IMG/VR virus record: IMGVR_UViG_3300040985_000553
Coordinates: 1 to 53,742 of that record
Reading direction: 5' to 3' (one strand)
Length of the DNA stretch: 53,742 nucleotides
Origin: a virus
Taxonomy: Duplodnaviria; Caudoviricetes
Under the pieces are notes generated by a model that did not search any database, was not told the origin of the DNA, and saw nothing but the letters and a program-made list of their open reading frames with translations. A program made the translations under genes and the position numbers. Within the stretch, counting starts at the first letter, position 1, and each line of letters begins with the position of its first letter. Of the stretch, positions 2,627-34,325 are shown one piece after another.

Positions 2627-3525
2627 TGGCAACGTACACCACCCGAATCAGGCTGAATAAGCAGGGGACCGGCGACAACGATTCGACGTGGGGTACAGTT
2701 CTGAATGATGAGGTCATTGATCTCACTGACTTTGCCATCGCCGGGTACACCACGATTAGCCTTGCTGCTGGTGATGTTAGTCTGACAGCTAATGACGGTA
2801 CGGCGGACGAGGCACGTTCGGCCATGCTCGAACTGACCGGTGCTTTGACCGGCGATACCGGAGTCTATCTCCCGTCGAGTATTACCAAAAGTTACATCGT
2901 CAAGAACAACACATCGGGTTCGTACGATGCGACGGTTCTGATTAACGGCGGGACCGGTCATGCAATTCCACAGGGTGGTACAACAATCGTTATCACCGAC
3001 GGCGTTACTGTCAGCGAGGCTATTGAGGGCGTCTACGGCACGGCAGCGACACTCGACTTTGGCACGGGTGATGCCAACCTGATTCCGGTGTCGTCTGCTG
3101 ACACCCGGTATGCCAACGTGTCTTCGGATGAGACAATCACCGGAAACTACACGTTCTCCTCGTCAACAACATTTACCGCGCAGGTCATCGGAACAGGGGC
3201 ACAGGCATTCTCCAGCCCTGTGTCGGTTGCCGTAGCATCCTCGGCGGTATCGCTAGACTTTGCCACCGGCAATAACTTTACGACAATCCTGAACGGTAAC
3301 GTGTCCATCGCCAATCCATCTAATCTACAGCCCGGTCAATCTGGCATAATCTATGTCGTGCAGGACGGAACCGGTTCTCGGACCATGTCGTTCAATTCAG
3401 ACTGGGAATTTACAGGAGGTACCGCACCTACACTGTCTACCGCTGCATCCGCAGTTGATGCTCTGATCTACAATGTCCGAACATCAACAGCAATCAGTGG
3501 TTTTGTCGTAAGTAATATGAGTTAA
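2626..3525 (+). CDS. tail fibre/adaptor virion protein
   Basis: N-terminal G.ND.TWG anchor-type motif; C-terminal ~90 aa paralogous to the C-terminus of 51618-52844. Confidence 0.65.
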   Translation: MATYTTRIRLNKQGTGDNDSTWGTVLNDEVIDLTDFAIAGYTTISLAAGDVSLTANDGTADEARSAMLELTGALTGDTGVYLPSSITKSYIVKNNTSGSYDATVLINGGTGHAIPQGGTTIVITDGVTVSEAIEGVYGTAATLDFGTGDANLIPVSSADTRYANVSSDETITGNYTFSSSTTFTAQVIGTGAQAFSSPVSVAVASSAVSLDFATGNNFTTILNGNVSIANPSNLQPGQSGIIYVVQDGTGSRTMSFNSDWEFTGGTAPTLSTAASAVDALIYNVRTSTAISGFVVSNMS

Positions 3526-3530
3526 TCAGC

Positions 3531-5333
3531 ATGGCTGGTGTTCTCTCCGAACTCAACTTTGCCCGACCCGGCTTCAATCGGGAGAACACCCGGTACGCCG
3601 AGAAGGGGCACTGGTACGACGGTGACCATGTCAGGTTCCGTGACGGTACTCCGCAGAACATTCGTGGATATGAGCGGCGCGGCGGTGTCTTCGACGGTAC
3701 ACCCAGAGACACAGTAACGTGGGTAGACTTTGATTCATCTCGCCTCATCGGCTTTGGCACTGAGAAGAAACTGTATCTGTACGAGGGCGGTGAAAACTAC
3801 GACATCACCCCGATTGTATCAGTAGTTACCGCCACGAACGGCCTGAATACCACCGCAGGGTCTACCCGGATTGTCGTGTCCGTGACCGGCGTCGGGGTTG
3901 AGGACGGCAACTACGTCGCCTTTACATCGCAGACAACGACGGTTGGCGGCAACATCTTCCTGACGACAATCAGCGATTCGTACGAGGTGTCAGTCATTGA
4001 CGCATCGTCATTTGCCGTTGACATCTCCGTAACCGCAGCAGCAACGTCTGCATCTGCCGGTGGTGATGTTACAATCCATCGTCTGCTTCCCGCAGGTCCG
4101 TCTGTGTCTCAGCCGGGATTTGGCTGGTCGGCTGGTACGTACGGCCTGTCTACCTACGGCACACCGCGAACAACTTCCAACATTACCGTGGAGATTCGTC
4201 AGTGGTCGATGACCAACTGGGGTGAAGACCTTCTGACAAACCCTCGCGGTGGTCGTATCTATCAGTGGGACGCGACAGGCGGGGCGGGAACTCGTGCCGC
4301 TCTGGTGACTGCATCCCCGACGCAGAATAATCAGATTCTGGTAACGCCGGACAGTCAGTTTGCCATCAGTCTGGGCTGCACGAACGAGGCTGGTGACTAC
4401 GATCCGCTGCTGGTCCGTTGGTCCAGTCAGGAGAACTACAACGATTGGACAGCCTCTGCGACGAACACCGCCGGGTCCAACCCAATTGGGACCGGGTCAA
4501 AGATTATCGGTGGAATGCACAGCCGTCAGGCCGTCATGATTTGGACCGACACGGCTACTCATACAATGCAGTATGTGGGCGGTCCGTTTGTCTTCCGCTT
4601 CCGACACATCGGTGACAACACCGGACTCATTGCCCCACACGCAGCCGCAGAATTTAACGGTATTCCGTTCTGGATGGGCGACACAAACTTTTTCGTCTGG
4701 CAGGGCGGTGCCGTTCAGACATTGGACTGCACTGTCCGTCGTTATATTTTTGATGACCTCAACTTGGATCAGCGCGACAAAATTTTTGCCGGGGTAAACT
4801 CGGAGTTTAACGAGATTACGTGGCTATATCCATCTGCGGATTCTCTGGAATGCGACAGGTACGTCAGCTACAACCCGCTGGAAAACTACTGGGTCTACGG
4901 TACCGGCAAGTTTACCACATGGGCGGACACCGGTATCTTCGATAACGTCATCACAGGCGGATCGGACAGCTATCTATACGACAACGAACCGACTGGCGTA
5001 TACACAGCAGACGGTGGCCTGTTGTCTTCCTTCATCGAATCAGCTTCTTTTGAAATTGATTCTGGCAATCAGATGATGATGATCCGCCGACTTATTCCTG
5101 ATGTATCCATCTCTGATCCGGGACAGGTAAAGTTCACCACAAAGACAAAACGGTACCCACAGGCTTCGGAAGAGACTGTCAAGGGTCCGTTCGTAATTCA
5201 GCCGGGTACGGAGAAGGTAGACTTCCGTGCCCGTGGTCGTCAGGCCAGTATTAAGATTGACTGCTCTACTGCCGGGGTGGCGTGGAAGTACGGTTCGATG
5301 CGTCTCCAGATACAGCCCGATGGCGGTCGATAG
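3531..5333 (+). CDS. podovirus tail tubular/nozzle (stabilisation) protein
   Basis: 600 aa, beta-rich; LVRWSSQEN, NEITWLYPS and RARGRQ motifs; lies before the ejection genes. Confidence 0.7.
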   Translation: MAGVLSELNFARPGFNRENTRYAEKGHWYDGDHVRFRDGTPQNIRGYERRGGVFDGTPRDTVTWVDFDSSRLIGFGTEKKLYLYEGGENYDITPIVSVVTATNGLNTTAGSTRIVVSVTGVGVEDGNYVAFTSQTTTVGGNIFLTTISDSYEVSVIDASSFAVDISVTAAATSASAGGDVTIHRLLPAGPSVSQPGFGWSAGTYGLSTYGTPRTTSNITVEIRQWSMTNWGEDLLTNPRGGRIYQWDATGGAGTRAALVTASPTQNNQILVTPDSQFAISLGCTNEAGDYDPLLVRWSSQENYNDWTASATNTAGSNPIGTGSKIIGGMHSRQAVMIWTDTATHTMQYVGGPFVFRFRHIGDNTGLIAPHAAAEFNGIPFWMGDTNFFVWQGGAVQTLDCTVRRYIFDDLNLDQRDKIFAGVNSEFNEITWLYPSADSLECDRYVSYNPLENYWVYGTGKFTTWADTGIFDNVITGGSDSYLYDNEPTGVYTADGGLLSSFIESASFEIDSGNQMMMIRRLIPDVSISDPGQVKFTTKTKRYPQASEETVKGPFVIQPGTEKVDFRARGRQASIKIDCSTAGVAWKYGSMRLQIQPDGGR

Positions 5334-5636: not shown

Positions 5637-7103
5637 ATGGCTATTAATCTCCCTACAGACGGCATGGATTCACTGGGTGCTCTAATTCAACTACAGATGT
5701 TGGAACAGATGCGCCCGTCTGTTCAAGAACAGCCGGTGATGCAAACAATGTCACGTCCTGATCTACCGAAGGATACAGGGCTGACCGCCGCTACCCCGCA
5801 AGGAATTGCTGGTGTTCTTTCTCGGTACGCCGAAAACCGTCTGGAAGAAAAACAACAGCCAATTCGTATGGAGACGGGCGGCAGCGTTATGGATCAGCTG
5901 TACGGGCAGCTTATGGGTCAAATCCCCATGGGTCAAAATCCGGCGTCGTATAATGATGATTACGAATATACTCCGTATGTTGCGGGTGCGGCACCGGCCC
6001 CGACACAATCTGCTGTTGCTGTCGTCCCAGACGCGCCTCTTGCATATGGTCCTGAAGACATTGCTATAAGAGAAAGCGGATTTGATTTTGACGATGGCGG
6101 GATTTCTGGTAATGCAGCAACAGGTACGTCGGGAGTCGGAGCACCGAGTGCGGCACAGACAGCAGCTAATCAATCATTTGCACAGGCTGTTTCATCACCT
6201 ATTGCTTCACAAGTCTTTGGTCCGGACGTTGGTAGAGGCGTTCAAGCAGTAAGCGGACTTGCGTCTATGGCGGGTGTTCCCGGCATTGGACTTGCAGGAA
6301 CAAGTCCTATTGGCATCATGGCAGCACTTCTGGGATTTGTAAACCCAGTAATGGGAGTAGCACTTGCTGGGTTTGGTCATGGGGTTAATGCCATTTCTAA
6401 TTTTGATGTTCAGACAAGCCCAAGTGGACAATCACAGGTTTATGGCTGGGGTAGCAAAAACATAGATATGTTTGACAATCTAGTAGGCACTCCAGAGCAT
6501 ACAGCAAACATGCTCGGATACGATCCTACTGATCCGATGAGTAGTAAAATTAACTTTACTTACCCGACAGTAGCAGATGTGGACCCAGCCGAAGTTGCAG
6601 CACAACAAGCCATTGCAGACTTTTCTCAAGCACATCAGGGAGAAGTTGGTGATGCCGGTCAAGGTGGTGGAATGTCTTCGGATGAAGCGGCTACTGATGC
6701 GGCAGAATCCGGTCAAAACGGACAGGGAGGACACATGGCACAGGGCGGTGTGGTTGACTTCTATGCACAGGGCGGCGGTATCTCGTCTCTGGCCTATGGC
6801 GGCGAGGCTGCACCGGTCGGCTTTGCTAACAAGGCGTTCGAGGGCATGGTCCCCGGACAGGGAACAGGTATGTCGGATGACGTCCCGTTCTCCATCGAGG
6901 GCAACCAACCAGCACTCCTATCTCGCGACGAATACGTACTACCATCTGATGTCGTATCCCAGTTAGGCGACGGATCATCTGGTGCCGGGGCAGACATGCT
7001 CGACACCTTTGTCTCGTCTGTACGTCAAAACAAATATGGAAACACGAATCAGCCTCCCCCGAACGGTGGCGGACTACTCGGTTCTTTGATGAAAACCGTA
7101 TAA
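5637..7103 (+). CDS. putative internal virion/ejection protein
   Basis: Gly/Ala-rich with a hydrophobic middle; C-terminal GQGTGMSDDVP...LLSRDEYV motif; several xxGG motifs. Confidence 0.6.
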   Translation: MAINLPTDGMDSLGALIQLQMLEQMRPSVQEQPVMQTMSRPDLPKDTGLTAATPQGIAGVLSRYAENRLEEKQQPIRMETGGSVMDQLYGQLMGQIPMGQNPASYNDDYEYTPYVAGAAPAPTQSAVAVVPDAPLAYGPEDIAIRESGFDFDDGGISGNAATGTSGVGAPSAAQTAANQSFAQAVSSPIASQVFGPDVGRGVQAVSGLASMAGVPGIGLAGTSPIGIMAALLGFVNPVMGVALAGFGHGVNAISNFDVQTSPSGQSQVYGWGSKNIDMFDNLVGTPEHTANMLGYDPTDPMSSKINFTYPTVADVDPAEVAAQQAIADFSQAHQGEVGDAGQGGGMSSDEAATDAAESGQNGQGGHMAQGGVVDFYAQGGGISSLAYGGEAAPVGFANKAFEGMVPGQGTGMSDDVPFSIEGNQPALLSRDEYVLPSDVVSQLGDGSSGAGADMLDTFVSSVRQNKYGNTNQPPPNGGGLLGSLMKTV

Positions 7104-31667: not shown

Positions 31668-31767
31668 CGTTCCTCCAGATGAAAGTGAGTAGCTGGTCGA
31701 GTGCCAGATACGTTATTATAATGATCATTGCTGATCCTGTCAGCACAATTCCGACGTGTTCAATCAT
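31609..31767 (-). CDS. small membrane protein (52 aa)
   Basis: Manual translation MIEHVGIVLTGSAMIIIITYLALDQLLTFIW... Confidence 0.45.
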   Translation of the reverse strand: MIEHVGIVLTGSAMIIIITYLALDQLLTFIWRNDDKATKDKAEKPLRKETDG

Positions 31768-32026
31768 AATTCTTTGTCCATTCATCTTCGGACATCACCC
31801 GATCCCCGTACTGGAGGATGTCGTTATTGTAGGTGTCTCCGTACTCCCACGATCCGTAAGTCATGGGTGAACGGGCAGCAACGTACCAGCGTGAGTACTG
31901 GATTGTCTTCTCTTTCTCGGGGTGTTGGTACGTCTTCAGGATACGCCATTCCCACCCTTGGGAATTAGTATAGATGGCGTAAGGGTTATCTACTGGTCGT
32001 GTCTTTCCGAATGGGGTGCGTGGCAT
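31760..32026 (-). CDS. conserved phage early protein (88 aa, MPRTPFGK...)
   Basis: GGGAG RBS; WEWRILKTYQ...WEYGDTY. Confidence 0.65.
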   Translation of the reverse strand: MPRTPFGKTRPVDNPYAIYTNSQGWEWRILKTYQHPEKEKTIQYSRWYVAARSPMTYGSWEYGDTYNNDILQYGDRVMSEDEWTKNYD

Positions 32027-32056
32027 TGTCTTCTCCCGTTGGTGGGTTGTGTGGGT

Positions 32057-32123
32057 GATTTCCACAGACGCCCGAAGGCGTTTCGGCTGGTTATCAGTCA
32101 GCCTCATCAGTGTGGCATCAATC
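32057..32123 (-). ncRNA. type I hammerhead ribozyme
   Basis: Minus strand CCACA-CUGAUGA-GGCUG(9-nt loop)CAGCC-GAAA-CGCC(UUCG)GGCG-UC-UGUGG: complete core and three perfect stems. Confidence 0.9.
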
Positions 32124-32128
32124 GTGTT

Positions 32129-32380
32129 TCATGTTCTCAGTCTCCAGCTTCGCTCACCGGTCGCCGCCCAAGTTTTAAGTAGCTTCGGCTCTGAGAAAGA
32201 CACGGCGTCTATTTCCTCATCGCGCCATTCGTAATCACTGAGATCATGGGCAGCCTTTTCTGCCTGTTCTTGTAAATACGCTAGATCAGTGGGATCATCC
32301 ATGTCCCGATGAGTTTCCACCGTCACCACAGAACTCTGCTGTATTGTACGGTAGACTTTGATTTCATATTGTTTAGTCAT
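32129..32380 (-). CDS. hypothetical early protein (83 aa)
   Basis: GGAG RBS; sits between the tRNA-like RNA and the hammerhead. Confidence 0.65.
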   Translation of the reverse strand: MTKQYEIKVYRTIQQSSVVTVETHRDMDDPTDLAYLQEQAEKAAHDLSDYEWRDEEIDAVSFSEPKLLKTWAATGERSWRLRT

Positions 32381-32414
32381 TTTAGTTCTCCAGTTGGTGC
32401 CGTATGTTGGTTAA

Positions 32415-32538
32415 GGTGGGGGTGAGCGGAGTCGAACCGCTCGTTAGGTAGCTGTACCTACCCTGCTGCATTGTACAGACCTCCAGCACGATAGTCGTGC
32501 CTTCGTAGGCTCTACAACATTCACTCGCCAGAACCCCC
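32415..32538 (-). ncRNA. tRNA-like RNA, 124 nt, non-canonical
   Basis: GGGGGU/ACCCCC-A-CC terminal stem; T-arm GAGCGG-UUCGACU-CCGCUC; internal hairpins; no canonical anticodon loop. Confidence 0.65.
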
Positions 32539-32651
32539 GTAATATCTATTCCTCTTTGGTTTCTTCAATTTGCACAGCTTAATCTATGGTCATAGAAAAG
32601 TCTAATGCTATTTCTGCATGGCAGGTATGTCGTCCACGCATGGCTTCTATG

Positions 32652-33053
32652 TTACTTATAGAATATATGTCGGCCAATCTTGAACAGTCTGGTCAGTCTG
32701 TCAGCCCATCCCGGATCGACGTAGTCTGCATGGTAGTGGGTGGCACCATCTGTCACGTCCACACCTACCCGGTGGAGCTTCTCGGCCATCATGGCGTTAT
32801 GTCTGGCAGCTTCCCATGCAGCACCGGGCGATGGTCTGTCCGGTAATCCGTCACAGTAAAAACTGAACTGACATTTATATTTCACCATATTTCCGTGACT
32901 GTCACGCGGTCCTTGGTATATGACATCACAAATATTGTCGGGCCATCGTCTGTCGTATTTTCTATTTATAACAGTCTGACCTACTGCTATCTGTCCCATA
33001 TCTGGCTCACCTTGTGCTTCAAAGTATATTGCTATGGCAAGACATTCAATCAT
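32652..33053 (-). CDS. SleB-like cell wall hydrolase (Hydrolase_2)
   Basis: CLAIAIYFEAQGE, CQFSFYCDG, GATHYHA and IGRHIFY motifs. Confidence 0.9.
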   Translation of the reverse strand: MIECLAIAIYFEAQGEPDMGQIAVGQTVINRKYDRRWPDNICDVIYQGPRDSHGNMVKYKCQFSFYCDGLPDRPSPGAAWEAARHNAMMAEKLHRVGVDVTDGATHYHADYVDPGWADRLTRLFKIGRHIFYK

Positions 33054-33551: not shown

Positions 33552-34325
33552 CTAGCAATCAACCACAAAGCCCGTCTGGTCATGCCTTGCCTTGCCTTTG
33601 GCGTATAGCGCGACAACCACGTTGTGATCATCCATGAAGCGCACGTCGCTGTCATCGCCGGGCACAACGTCCAGCCCGTCAAATGTCGCCGGGATGATAT
33701 CTTTTGATCGAAATACTACCGCAATTCTGTGTCCCATTGCCCGAGCTGTCTGGTAATATTTGGCGTAATCTTTAACGCCAGAATATGAGAAGGTAAGATC
33801 GTATACGTCACGGTCCGGGATGATACGATTTGGAATTTTCGTATAGTCGTAAAACTTGGCCCCATATTTAGTGTGCATTTCGACCATAAAATCCCAGATC
33901 AATAGTTCCCAACGTGTGTCTGACGTACCGCATAAGCGTATTGCCGGGATCATGTTTTTCTTAATAGATAACAGAACATGAGTGAGAATTTCGCGCTTTA
34001 ATTGTGCAAGAAACTCGTCGCGGTACTGATTAAAGTAAAGCGTTTTGCGTAACCGCGAAAGCTGGACCGTTGTCATCGCGCCGCGCCCGGCGGTATTAAG
34101 ACAAGGCCCGTCGCACTGTGCGATCTGTGCCATGGGGCACATATTCACGCCCGATATATCGTGTGGCGATAGATAAAGTATAGCGGTTCGAACACCTATC
34201 TTCTCACCCTTAATTGTTTTCGCATCGTTCGAGATGCTAAGCAAATCGCCGGGCCTTTCATCATGCCAACGCTTGGCGCGGAATGCAGCGGTAAGGCCGG
34301 GATCAATATTGTCTAAGTTATACAT
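33552..34325 (-). CDS. GP88-family Cys-cluster protein
   Basis: CPMA...CDGPCLNTAGRG, IRLCGTSD, FYDYTK, YDLTFS and GDDSDVRF motifs. Confidence 0.75.
   Translation of the reverse strand: MYNLDNIDPGLTAAFRAKRWHDERPGDLLSISNDAKTIKGEKIGVRTAILYLSPHDISGVNMCPMAQIAQCDGPCLNTAGRGAMTTVQLSRLRKTLYFNQYRDEFLAQLKREILTHVLLSIKKNMIPAIRLCGTSDTRWELLIWDFMVEMHTKYGAKFYDYTKIPNRIIPDRDVYDLTFSYSGVKDYAKYYQTARAMGHRIAVVFRSKDIIPATFDGLDVVPGDDSDVRFMDDHNVVVALYAKGKARHDQTGFVVDC

Follow-up and report, generated by a model that had tools for sequence, protein, structure and literature searches.

Structured signals that lie between cistrons are cut to release defined mRNAs in systems such as the tRNA punctuation of mitochondrial transcripts and the RNase III sites of the T7 early RNA. 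Hammerhead ribozymes self-cleave, leaving a 2',3'-cyclic phosphate on the upstream product and a 5'-OH on the downstream one, and the minihelix of acceptor and T arms is a recognised substrate of RNase P. A pseudoknot class of phage hammerheads has been described by Perreault et al. (2011; PMC3088659), and prophage hammerheads that flank genes are there proposed to process long phage transcripts into single-gene mRNAs. Phage tRNA-Tyr is known to act against host defences: that of T5 against retron-Eco7 PtuAB (PMC11555353) and that of T6 against Septu, which cuts the variable loop (PMC13096335). Here we consider a locus with an RNA of each kind. It lies in virus record IMGVR_UViG_3300040985_000553, the whole of which (53,742 bases, estimated 91% complete; our record G000) is the window of this analysis. 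On the minus strand the order is a tRNA-like element (32538-32415), an open reading frame (ORF) of 83 amino acids (aa), ORF83 (32380-32129), and a hammerhead, an arrangement reported in an earlier note on this DNA and confirmed here. We think it probable that two independent, separately acquired RNA modules flank ORF83 in the early/replication arm of a marine phage. The three features are:

32415-32538, minus strand: tRNA-Tyr-like gene of 124 nucleotides (nt), from the ARAGORN intron mode and homologs
32129-32380, minus strand: ORF83, a small acidic protein of 83 aa, with stop TGA at 32131-32129, from the ORF list
32051-32117, minus strand: type I hammerhead ribozyme, from its core, stems, covariance model and pseudoknot

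The hammerhead ribozyme

On the minus strand the hammerhead reads CCACA-CUGAUGA-GGCUG-ACUGAUAAC-CAGCC-GAAA-CGCC-UUCG-GGCG-U-C/UGUGG, the slash marking the predicted cleavage position. Stem I, of 5 base pairs (bp), joins CCACA (32115-32111) to UGUGG (32066-32062) and begins at 32115, 13 nt past the ORF83 stop, in keeping with the earlier note's placing of the ribozyme a few nt after that stop. CUGAUGA occupies 32110-32104; stem II, GGCUG/CAGCC, has 5 bp; GAAA follows at 32084-32081 (GAA at 32084-32082); and stem III, in the CGCC-UUCG-GGCG region, is counted as 6 bp, the pair between A15.1 at 32081 and U16.1 at 32068 standing beside C17 at 32067. The core is complete (C3 U4 G5 A6 N7 G8 A9, G12 A13 A14, A15.1-U16.1, H17), and the three helices (5/5/6 bp) close on it. 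Core anatomy predicts self-cleavage between 32067 (C17) and 32066, the same site that the earlier note had named. The ribozyme is of type I because stem I is the open one. A pseudoknot is predicted between loop II and the 3' tail, UGAU (32096-32093) pairing with AUCA (32059-32056) over 4 bp.

How readily might such a structure arise by chance? A structural scan of both strands of the window found this single hammerhead, and none of 400 Markov-1 random windows had stems of at least 4/4/4; a loose 3/2/3 match turned up in 57 of the 400. The covariance model R2, built from 59 other phage hammerheads with the window excluded, and whose members were gathered by a degenerate pattern derived from the window hammerhead itself, scores 60.5 bits (E 8.2e-16) at 32117-32051, its sole match in 187 kilobases (kb) of related records.

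The relatives, taken from viral contigs, amount to at least 120 pattern stretches, and 80 loci were analysed. Among the matches listed, 69 of 81 have all three stems of at least 3 bp. In the alignment of 59 hammerheads, 207 cells changed on both sides of a pair against 68 in shuffles, a value reached by none of 500 shuffles, the count being biased by the stem filter, although 69 of 81 matches had passed it. Of 64 hammerheads, 29 can form 4 or more Watson-Crick pairs between loop II and the tail; when tails were dealt to other ribozymes, the mean was 10.3 and the maximum 19. The setting is also a regular one. Of 57 loci with an upstream ORF, 47 have a CUGAUGA that begins between -10 and +30 nt relative to where a same-strand ORF of at least 60 aa ends, against 120 of 1203 random positions from the same loci. 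The window follows this rule, with its CUGAUGA 18 nt from the ORF83 stop. On the evidence of core, helices and relatives, we conclude that the hammerhead is genuine and a member of a common class of phage type I hammerheads stabilised by a pseudoknot. Both its kind and its proposed role are already known (PMC3088659).

Two observations from these scans concern other loci. At 5790-5909, minus strand, of a 126.8-kb phage contig (L120), a well-formed type I hammerhead ends exactly at the first base of an ARAGORN tRNA-Tyr(gta), the 3' strand of stem I being also the 5' strand of the tRNA acceptor (GGGGGU...). Since the hammerhead ends at tRNA base 1, its self-cleavage would create the mature 5' end of the tRNA without RNase P, and the arrangement looks like a natural fusion of hammerhead and tRNA. 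A scan of 80 loci with genes for cell-wall hydrolases of the SleB type gave only five loose hammerhead-like matches, each about 100 nt long and with stems of 3/5/4 or 3/2/3; four fall within the SleB coding match, the fifth is upstream of it, and all five were judged to be chance matches.

The tRNA-like gene

With introns allowed, ARAGORN calls a tRNA-Tyr(gta) at c[32415,32538], i(28,33), that is, 91 nt plus a 33-nt insertion; these are exactly the bounds that the earlier note had drawn. The call is the sole one of its mode in the window, and 60 random windows gave none. Default ARAGORN reports 0 genes in the window, and Rfam gives 0 matches to the element at gathering thresholds and no tRNA match at E values up to 10. 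The acceptor GGGGGU/ACCCCC has 6 bp (32538-32533 with 32423-32418), and the 3' ACC at 32417-32415 consists of discriminator A73 followed by CC. The other parts of the gene are:

32424-32442, minus strand: T arm GAGCGG-UUCGACU-CCGCUC, with a canonical T loop and a 6-bp stem, read from the sequence
32446-32463, minus strand: long variable-arm hairpin of 6 bp with a 6-nt loop, a class II feature, from the minimum free energy (MFE) fold; invariant in 4 of 4 sequences
32472-32478, minus strand: heptamer CUGUACA, resembling an anticodon loop (GUA is the Tyr anticodon); invariant in 4 of 4 aligned sequences
32479-32511, minus strand: 33-nt insertion (element positions 28-60) with a 7-bp hairpin capped by CUA, from ARAGORN

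The insertion follows the 5' strand of the anticodon stem and precedes the anticodon-like loop, at the 31/32 junction. It has no second copy in the window, and in the virus collection it occurs only within this tRNA-like element. The gene departs from a functional anticodon loop in having C at position 37 and a G.A mismatch at the end of the stem. Its D arm has a 3-bp stem (G.U, C-G, G.U) and a 6-nt loop, AGUGAA, with no GG. In the MFE fold the insertion stacks on the anticodon stem, so that the heptamer is mostly paired: in both the window and a related contig, L092, the probability of being unpaired is at most 0.05 for five of the seven nt, 0.06 for one and 0.95 for G63. The energy needed to hold CUGUACA single-stranded is 3.8 kcal/mol for the window sequence, 2.9 for L092 and 0.5 for a further homolog, L235.

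Is the element then a tRNA gene at all? A reading as transfer-messenger RNA (tmRNA) was rejected: the acceptor has G3-C70 and not G3.U70, there is no tag reading frame, the length is 124 nt, and the tmRNA mode of ARAGORN was negative. At permissive Rfam settings, local matches to tmRNA models cover the T arm only. To judge from its arms and its homologs, the element is a tRNA-derived gene, and the long variable arm favours the Tyr reading.

Relatives and spread of the tRNA-like gene

A pattern scan located a copy in L092, part of a 31.9-kb record (G001), that is 96% identical over 149 nt; the rest of the 12 kb of L092 has no blastn match to the window. The two phages are otherwise distant, with primase-helicases 38% identical and large terminases (TerL) unrelated. 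A pattern scan of metagenomes gave only L098 and L100, variants of the L092 phage (96%), and a chance match, L099. A third lineage, L235, has a copy 89% identical, and because BLAST against L235 matches 32414-32536 only, the conserved unit corresponds to the bounds of the tRNA-like gene. In the acceptor, the L235 copy has replaced the G2-C pair with A-U, a compensatory change; in the T stem, one pair is G-C in the window, G.U in L092 and A-U in L235, and another pair has gone from C-G to G-C in L235. There are thus three covarying pairs in total across the two stems, and such changes in the aligned sequences show RNA-level selection on the acceptor and T arms. Every homolog retains the insertion (32 nt in L235), and neither the variable arm nor the CUGUACA region varies among the four aligned sequences. 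The setting of the tRNA-like gene is alike in the three lineages: it has co-oriented genes on both sides and is followed, after 19-34 nt, by a ribosome-binding site (RBS) and a small ORF. The small ORFs, of 83, 82 and 49 aa, are not related to one another, nor do the lineages share the same upstream genes.

The flanks of the window copy are identical to those of L092 and L098, not to those of L235: ten nt upstream, TAGATATTAC (32548-32539), and about ten nt downstream, TTAACCAACA (32414-32404). The identity suggests either a recent transfer of a cassette of about 145 bp between the window and L092 lineages or conserved processing signals. An exact 26-mer probe had 0 viral matches and exact 24-mer and 21-mer probes had 0 matches in the genomes of 185,579 species, so that the probes pointed to no host and no source gene.

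In the 1.56 Mb of fetched loci, some of which overlap, the intron mode of ARAGORN made calls only on the homologs and on five other loci, which had been selected for long spacing between acceptor and T loop. The long tRNA-like genes in these five, seen in intron mode only, are L089:4005-4121 and 2375-2500, L091:4898-5034, L094:1204-1339, L093:5964-6099 and L095:3932-4022. Their insertions, of 16-64 nt, are in or beside the anticodon loop; they are called Phe(aaa), Cys(gca), Ser(aga) and Ser(gga), and some are members of tRNA arrays. Annotation may understate how common tRNA genes with insertions are in phages. A different arrangement was seen in marine viral contigs, where a T arm and an acceptor 3' strand ending in CCACCA adjoin SleB-type genes (L064:~4640-4750, L080:~4500-4610 and L088:~3225-3330). 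These pieces resemble the acceptor piece of a permuted tmRNA or an attachment site; model R1, made for the tRNA-like gene, has a weak match at L088 (11.6 bits).

Linkage and alternative explanations

Do the two RNAs belong together? The earlier note proposed a dedicated punctuation system, in which tRNA mimic and ribozyme were selected together to free ORF83 as a monocistron, and named co-occurrence in relatives as one of its checks. Two things speak for such a system: the elements bracket exactly one small conserved ORF, and prophage hammerheads that flank single genes are reported to cleave in vitro and in vivo (PMC3088659). The relatives, however, show no linkage. Neither the structural scan nor R2 found a hammerhead in the carriers of the tRNA-like gene, namely G001 (whole 31.9 kb), L098, L100 and L235 (12.9 of 17 kb). 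Conversely, a search of 81 loci with R1, 80 of them fetched by the hammerhead pattern, produced 0 tRNA-like genes, and ARAGORN finds a tRNA within 1.5 kb of just 1 of 71 hammerheads from other contigs, that of L120, both counts being among the matches listed. The ORFs that follow the tRNA-like gene are, moreover, unrelated across its three lineages. Because the elements do not co-occur in relatives, the reading as a system fails, and we regard joint selection as decidedly unlikely. What survives of the proposal is that the transcript may be cut at both places: the elements are real, co-oriented and of kinds that can be cut, and it is the two-part system that lacks support. Each element alone would cut the transcript, which would release ORF83 as a monocistron, and this release is plausibly a by-product of two cuts and not the purpose of a dedicated system.

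The nature of the tRNA-like gene is a separate matter. One possibility is a working tRNA-Tyr, in which removal of the 33-nt insertion as an intron would leave a decoding tRNA-Tyr(GUA) of about 91 nt that supplements or replaces the host tRNA-Tyr, for example after depletion by a nuclease. The ARAGORN intron call is as expected of such a gene, as are G1-C72, A73, the long variable arm and the CUGUA half of the loop, which we take to match the identity elements of bacterial tRNA-Tyr; and phage tRNA-Tyr genes do counter retron-Eco7 PtuAB and Septu (PMC11555353, PMC13096335). Against it stand the C at position 37, the D arm with its three G.U-rich pairs and 6-nt loop without GG, the different anticodon register in L235, and a fold without a bulge-helix-bulge motif. 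To our knowledge, no bacterial pathway splices a 33-nt tRNA insert, and no report of such splicing was found in the literature searched, so that a working tRNA seems to us improbable. Alternatively, the unspliced 124-nt RNA might serve as a decoy, mimicking the elbow, acceptor and variable arm of tRNA-Tyr, hiding the anticodon in an extended helix and titrating a host factor that targets tRNA-Tyr, be it a defence nuclease or a modification enzyme. A decoy would fit the invariance of the variable arm and anticodon region (4/4) while the acceptor and T stems covary, the prediction that most of the heptamer, U64 and A65 among it, is paired in both the window and L092, and the spread of the element among distantly related phages. 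The idea is entirely inferential, however, and the open and closed folds of the L235 copy are nearly equal in energy; it too seems doubtful, with about the same standing as a working tRNA. Least probable by far is a site acting at the DNA level, a remnant of an attP or integration target copied from a host tRNA or tmRNA gene. The local T-arm matches to tmRNA models, and the resemblance of a short block held in common by otherwise unlike phages to common attachment sites, are what such a site would predict. Yet the 5' half is there in full, the RNA helices are preserved by compensatory changes, the 24-mer and 21-mer probes are without a match in the 185,579 species genomes, and the tmRNA mode of ARAGORN found nothing. 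Nor is there a Phage_integrase domain (PF00589) in G000 (91% complete) or G001 (85% complete), in a search that recovered its positive control in 14 of 14 genomes and did not extend to serine recombinases.

Taken broadly, then, a non-decoding tRNA mimic is more likely than a working tRNA-Tyr, given C37, the weak D arm and the insertion. A more specific version, to which we give only a small chance, is that the gene represents a new phage tRNA-Tyr mimic in which the conserved 33-nt hairpin locks the anticodon into an extended helix (a decoy or inhibitor, for example of a Septu/PtuAB-type nuclease), or else that the hairpin is a short tRNA intron of a kind new to bacterial viruses, and that the module is mobile among unrelated marine phages.

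Several observations weigh against our reading of two genuine, processed RNA modules. The pseudoknot of the hammerhead has just 4 bp, and a GAU/AUC extension of stem I is a competing pairing. Rfam gives 0 matches to hammerhead families at gathering thresholds, and the best permissive match, RAGATH-1-hammerhead, scores 18.9 bits against a cut-off of 56.3. The covariation of the tRNA-like gene comes from 4 sequences, too few for the shuffle controls to be decisive: 26-45 of 500 shuffles reach its whole-structure measures and 98-106 of 500 the measure of further standard pair types. Nor does any observed change favour the cloverleaf over the long hairpin or the reverse. The reading as Tyr hinges on register, since ARAGORN calls the L235 copy tRNA-Cys(aca), with a 36-nt insertion and a differing anticodon register. 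Finally, one 222-nt contig (32334-32555) from an RNA-library run, X20, bridges the predicted 3' end of the tRNA-like gene. If RNA, it represents an unprocessed junction; alternatively, it could be DNA carried in that library. RNA runs are represented by assembled contigs, which show presence and not the starts or ends of RNAs.

Proposed processing of the transcript

What would follow from two independent modules on one transcript? Cutting the polycistronic RNA co-transcriptionally between 32067 and 32066, the hammerhead would leave an ORF83 message that ends in the folded ribozyme with a 2',3'-cyclic phosphate, and a downstream message that would begin with a 5'-OH, 40 nt before its ATG. The type I fold means that the upstream fragment would retain the whole folded ribozyme. 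The cut might thereby uncouple the stability and expression of the two sides. At the other end of ORF83, host RNase P and 3' trimming would excise the tRNA-like RNA, severing the transcript there as well. The tRNA-like gene is likely made within a polycistronic RNA and cut out of it, given that its flanking genes are co-oriented and that a crude scan found no promoter-like site directly upstream. We infer the cleavage and the RNase P processing from sequence and structure.

The flanking genes and their setting

A GGAG precedes the ATG of ORF83, which lies 34 nt past the 3' end of the tRNA-like gene. ORF83 has four relatives, 77-95% identical in alignment, and three of the four, of 70-72 aa, are without the last 11-13 residues. 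No relatives were found in viral contigs, no family in Pfam or PHROGs, and in a protein atlas only scores of at most 0.86, which is chance level. The C-terminal extension that the 70-72-aa relatives do not have (window 32129-32167) ends just ahead of the hammerhead; because it stops there, the arrival of the ribozyme may have reshaped the 3' part of the gene. The ATG of the next gene, an 88-aa ORF, is at 32026, 40 nt beyond the predicted cleavage site; seven homologs, 53-67% identical, were found in viral contigs, and 0 of these 7 loci carry a hammerhead or a tRNA-like gene. On the other side, the stop of a SleB-type hydrolase gene is 113 nt ahead of the tRNA-like gene. The neighbouring genes are:

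31760-32026, minus strand: downstream ORF of 88 aa with RBS GGGAG, from the ORF list
32652-33053, minus strand: cell-wall hydrolase (Hydrolase_2/SleB type; Pfam PF07486, E 8e-22; PHROG endolysin)
33552-34325, minus strand: GP88-family protein of the minus-strand arm, from PHROGs and Pfam

By PHROGs and Pfam the window has two gene arms. The minus-strand arm, from about 36155 to 13328, contains many small ORFs and also encodes primase-helicase, DNA polymerase, a Cas4-type exonuclease and ribonucleotide reductase; the plus-strand structural arm, from 36483, encodes the terminase subunits, portal and major head protein. The ORF83 locus is within the small-ORF part of the minus-strand arm, and it is called early solely on account of this position in the replication arm. 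Both RNA elements are co-oriented with the tightly packed minus-strand genes. A crude promoter scan of the window found nothing promoter-like directly upstream of the hammerhead or the tRNA-like gene. Two strong terminator-like hairpins (34931-34908 and 35049-35013, minus strand) follow a 358-aa gene, and the transcript with both RNA elements probably starts between about 34900 and 34330. Further downstream, a near-consensus sigma-70-like promoter, CTGACA-17-TATAAT (11/12), at 31743-31715, minus strand, spans the stop of the 88-aa ORF and the sequence just 3' of it.

Distant blastn of 1.2 kb around the locus gave no match to GenBank phages. Contigs identical to the window over the stretches they cover occur in marine or seawater metagenome runs of three studies (X3, X4 and X6). 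The DNA contigs of these runs, which leave gaps in cover, have no differences across the two elements where these are covered and so yield no covariation. One X6 contig has 9 substitutions relative to the window at 32602-32664 and a 10-nt insertion after 32642; this variant stretch runs from the 3' end of the SleB-type gene into the intergenic leader that precedes the tRNA-like gene. A second X6 contig matches the tRNA-like gene itself exactly.

Significance

The window hammerhead is a further example of its class, and the position of hammerheads at ORF ends (47/57) agrees with a long-standing proposal, not a new one and for such phages still a hypothesis in vivo, that phages cleave their own polycistronic RNAs. 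The new part is the interrupted tRNA-Tyr mimic. Standard annotation missed this tRNA-Tyr-like gene, which has been conserved, insertion included, between phages whose primase-helicases are 38% identical. Anti-phage nucleases are known to target tRNA-Tyr. Should the gene prove to be a decoy or to carry a new type of intron, it would extend what is known of how phages use tRNAs in counter-defence or of how bacteria process tRNA.

Comparison with known systems

How does the locus compare with what has been described? The tRNA-like domain of tmRNA has in common with the window element an acceptor and T arm and a reduced D region; the window element differs in having no G3.U70 pair, no tag frame and only 124 nt. 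Like the tRNA-Tyr genes of T5 and T6 (PMC11555353, PMC13096335), it is carried by a phage, is of the tRNA-Tyr type and has a long variable arm; the window has no other tRNA-like gene. It differs from them in the 33-nt insertion within its anticodon arm, in C37, in its degenerate D arm and in being passed over by standard tools. No report of short insertions in phage tRNA genes was found in the literature searched, and such reports may still exist. The mitochondrial and T7 systems are genome-wide and repeated, whereas the window has one tRNA-like gene and one ribozyme, unlinked in relatives.

For the hammerhead, the prophage examples of Perreault et al. (PMC3088659) have the same consensus core, open stem I and pseudoknot between loop II and 3' tail, and they likewise lie between co-oriented phage genes. 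The window differs in that there is a single hammerhead, not a pair or triple flanking a gene, and curated Rfam models miss it. The theta ribozymes, which are like those of hepatitis delta virus (10.1101/2023.06.13.544163), provide the other comparison, for there too a self-cleaving ribozyme and a tRNA gene are on one phage transcript; that preprint makes no mention of hammerheads. The theta ribozymes abut the 3' end of the tRNA and trim its trailer. In the window, 297 nt that include a protein gene separate the 3' end of the tRNA-like gene from the hammerhead downstream.

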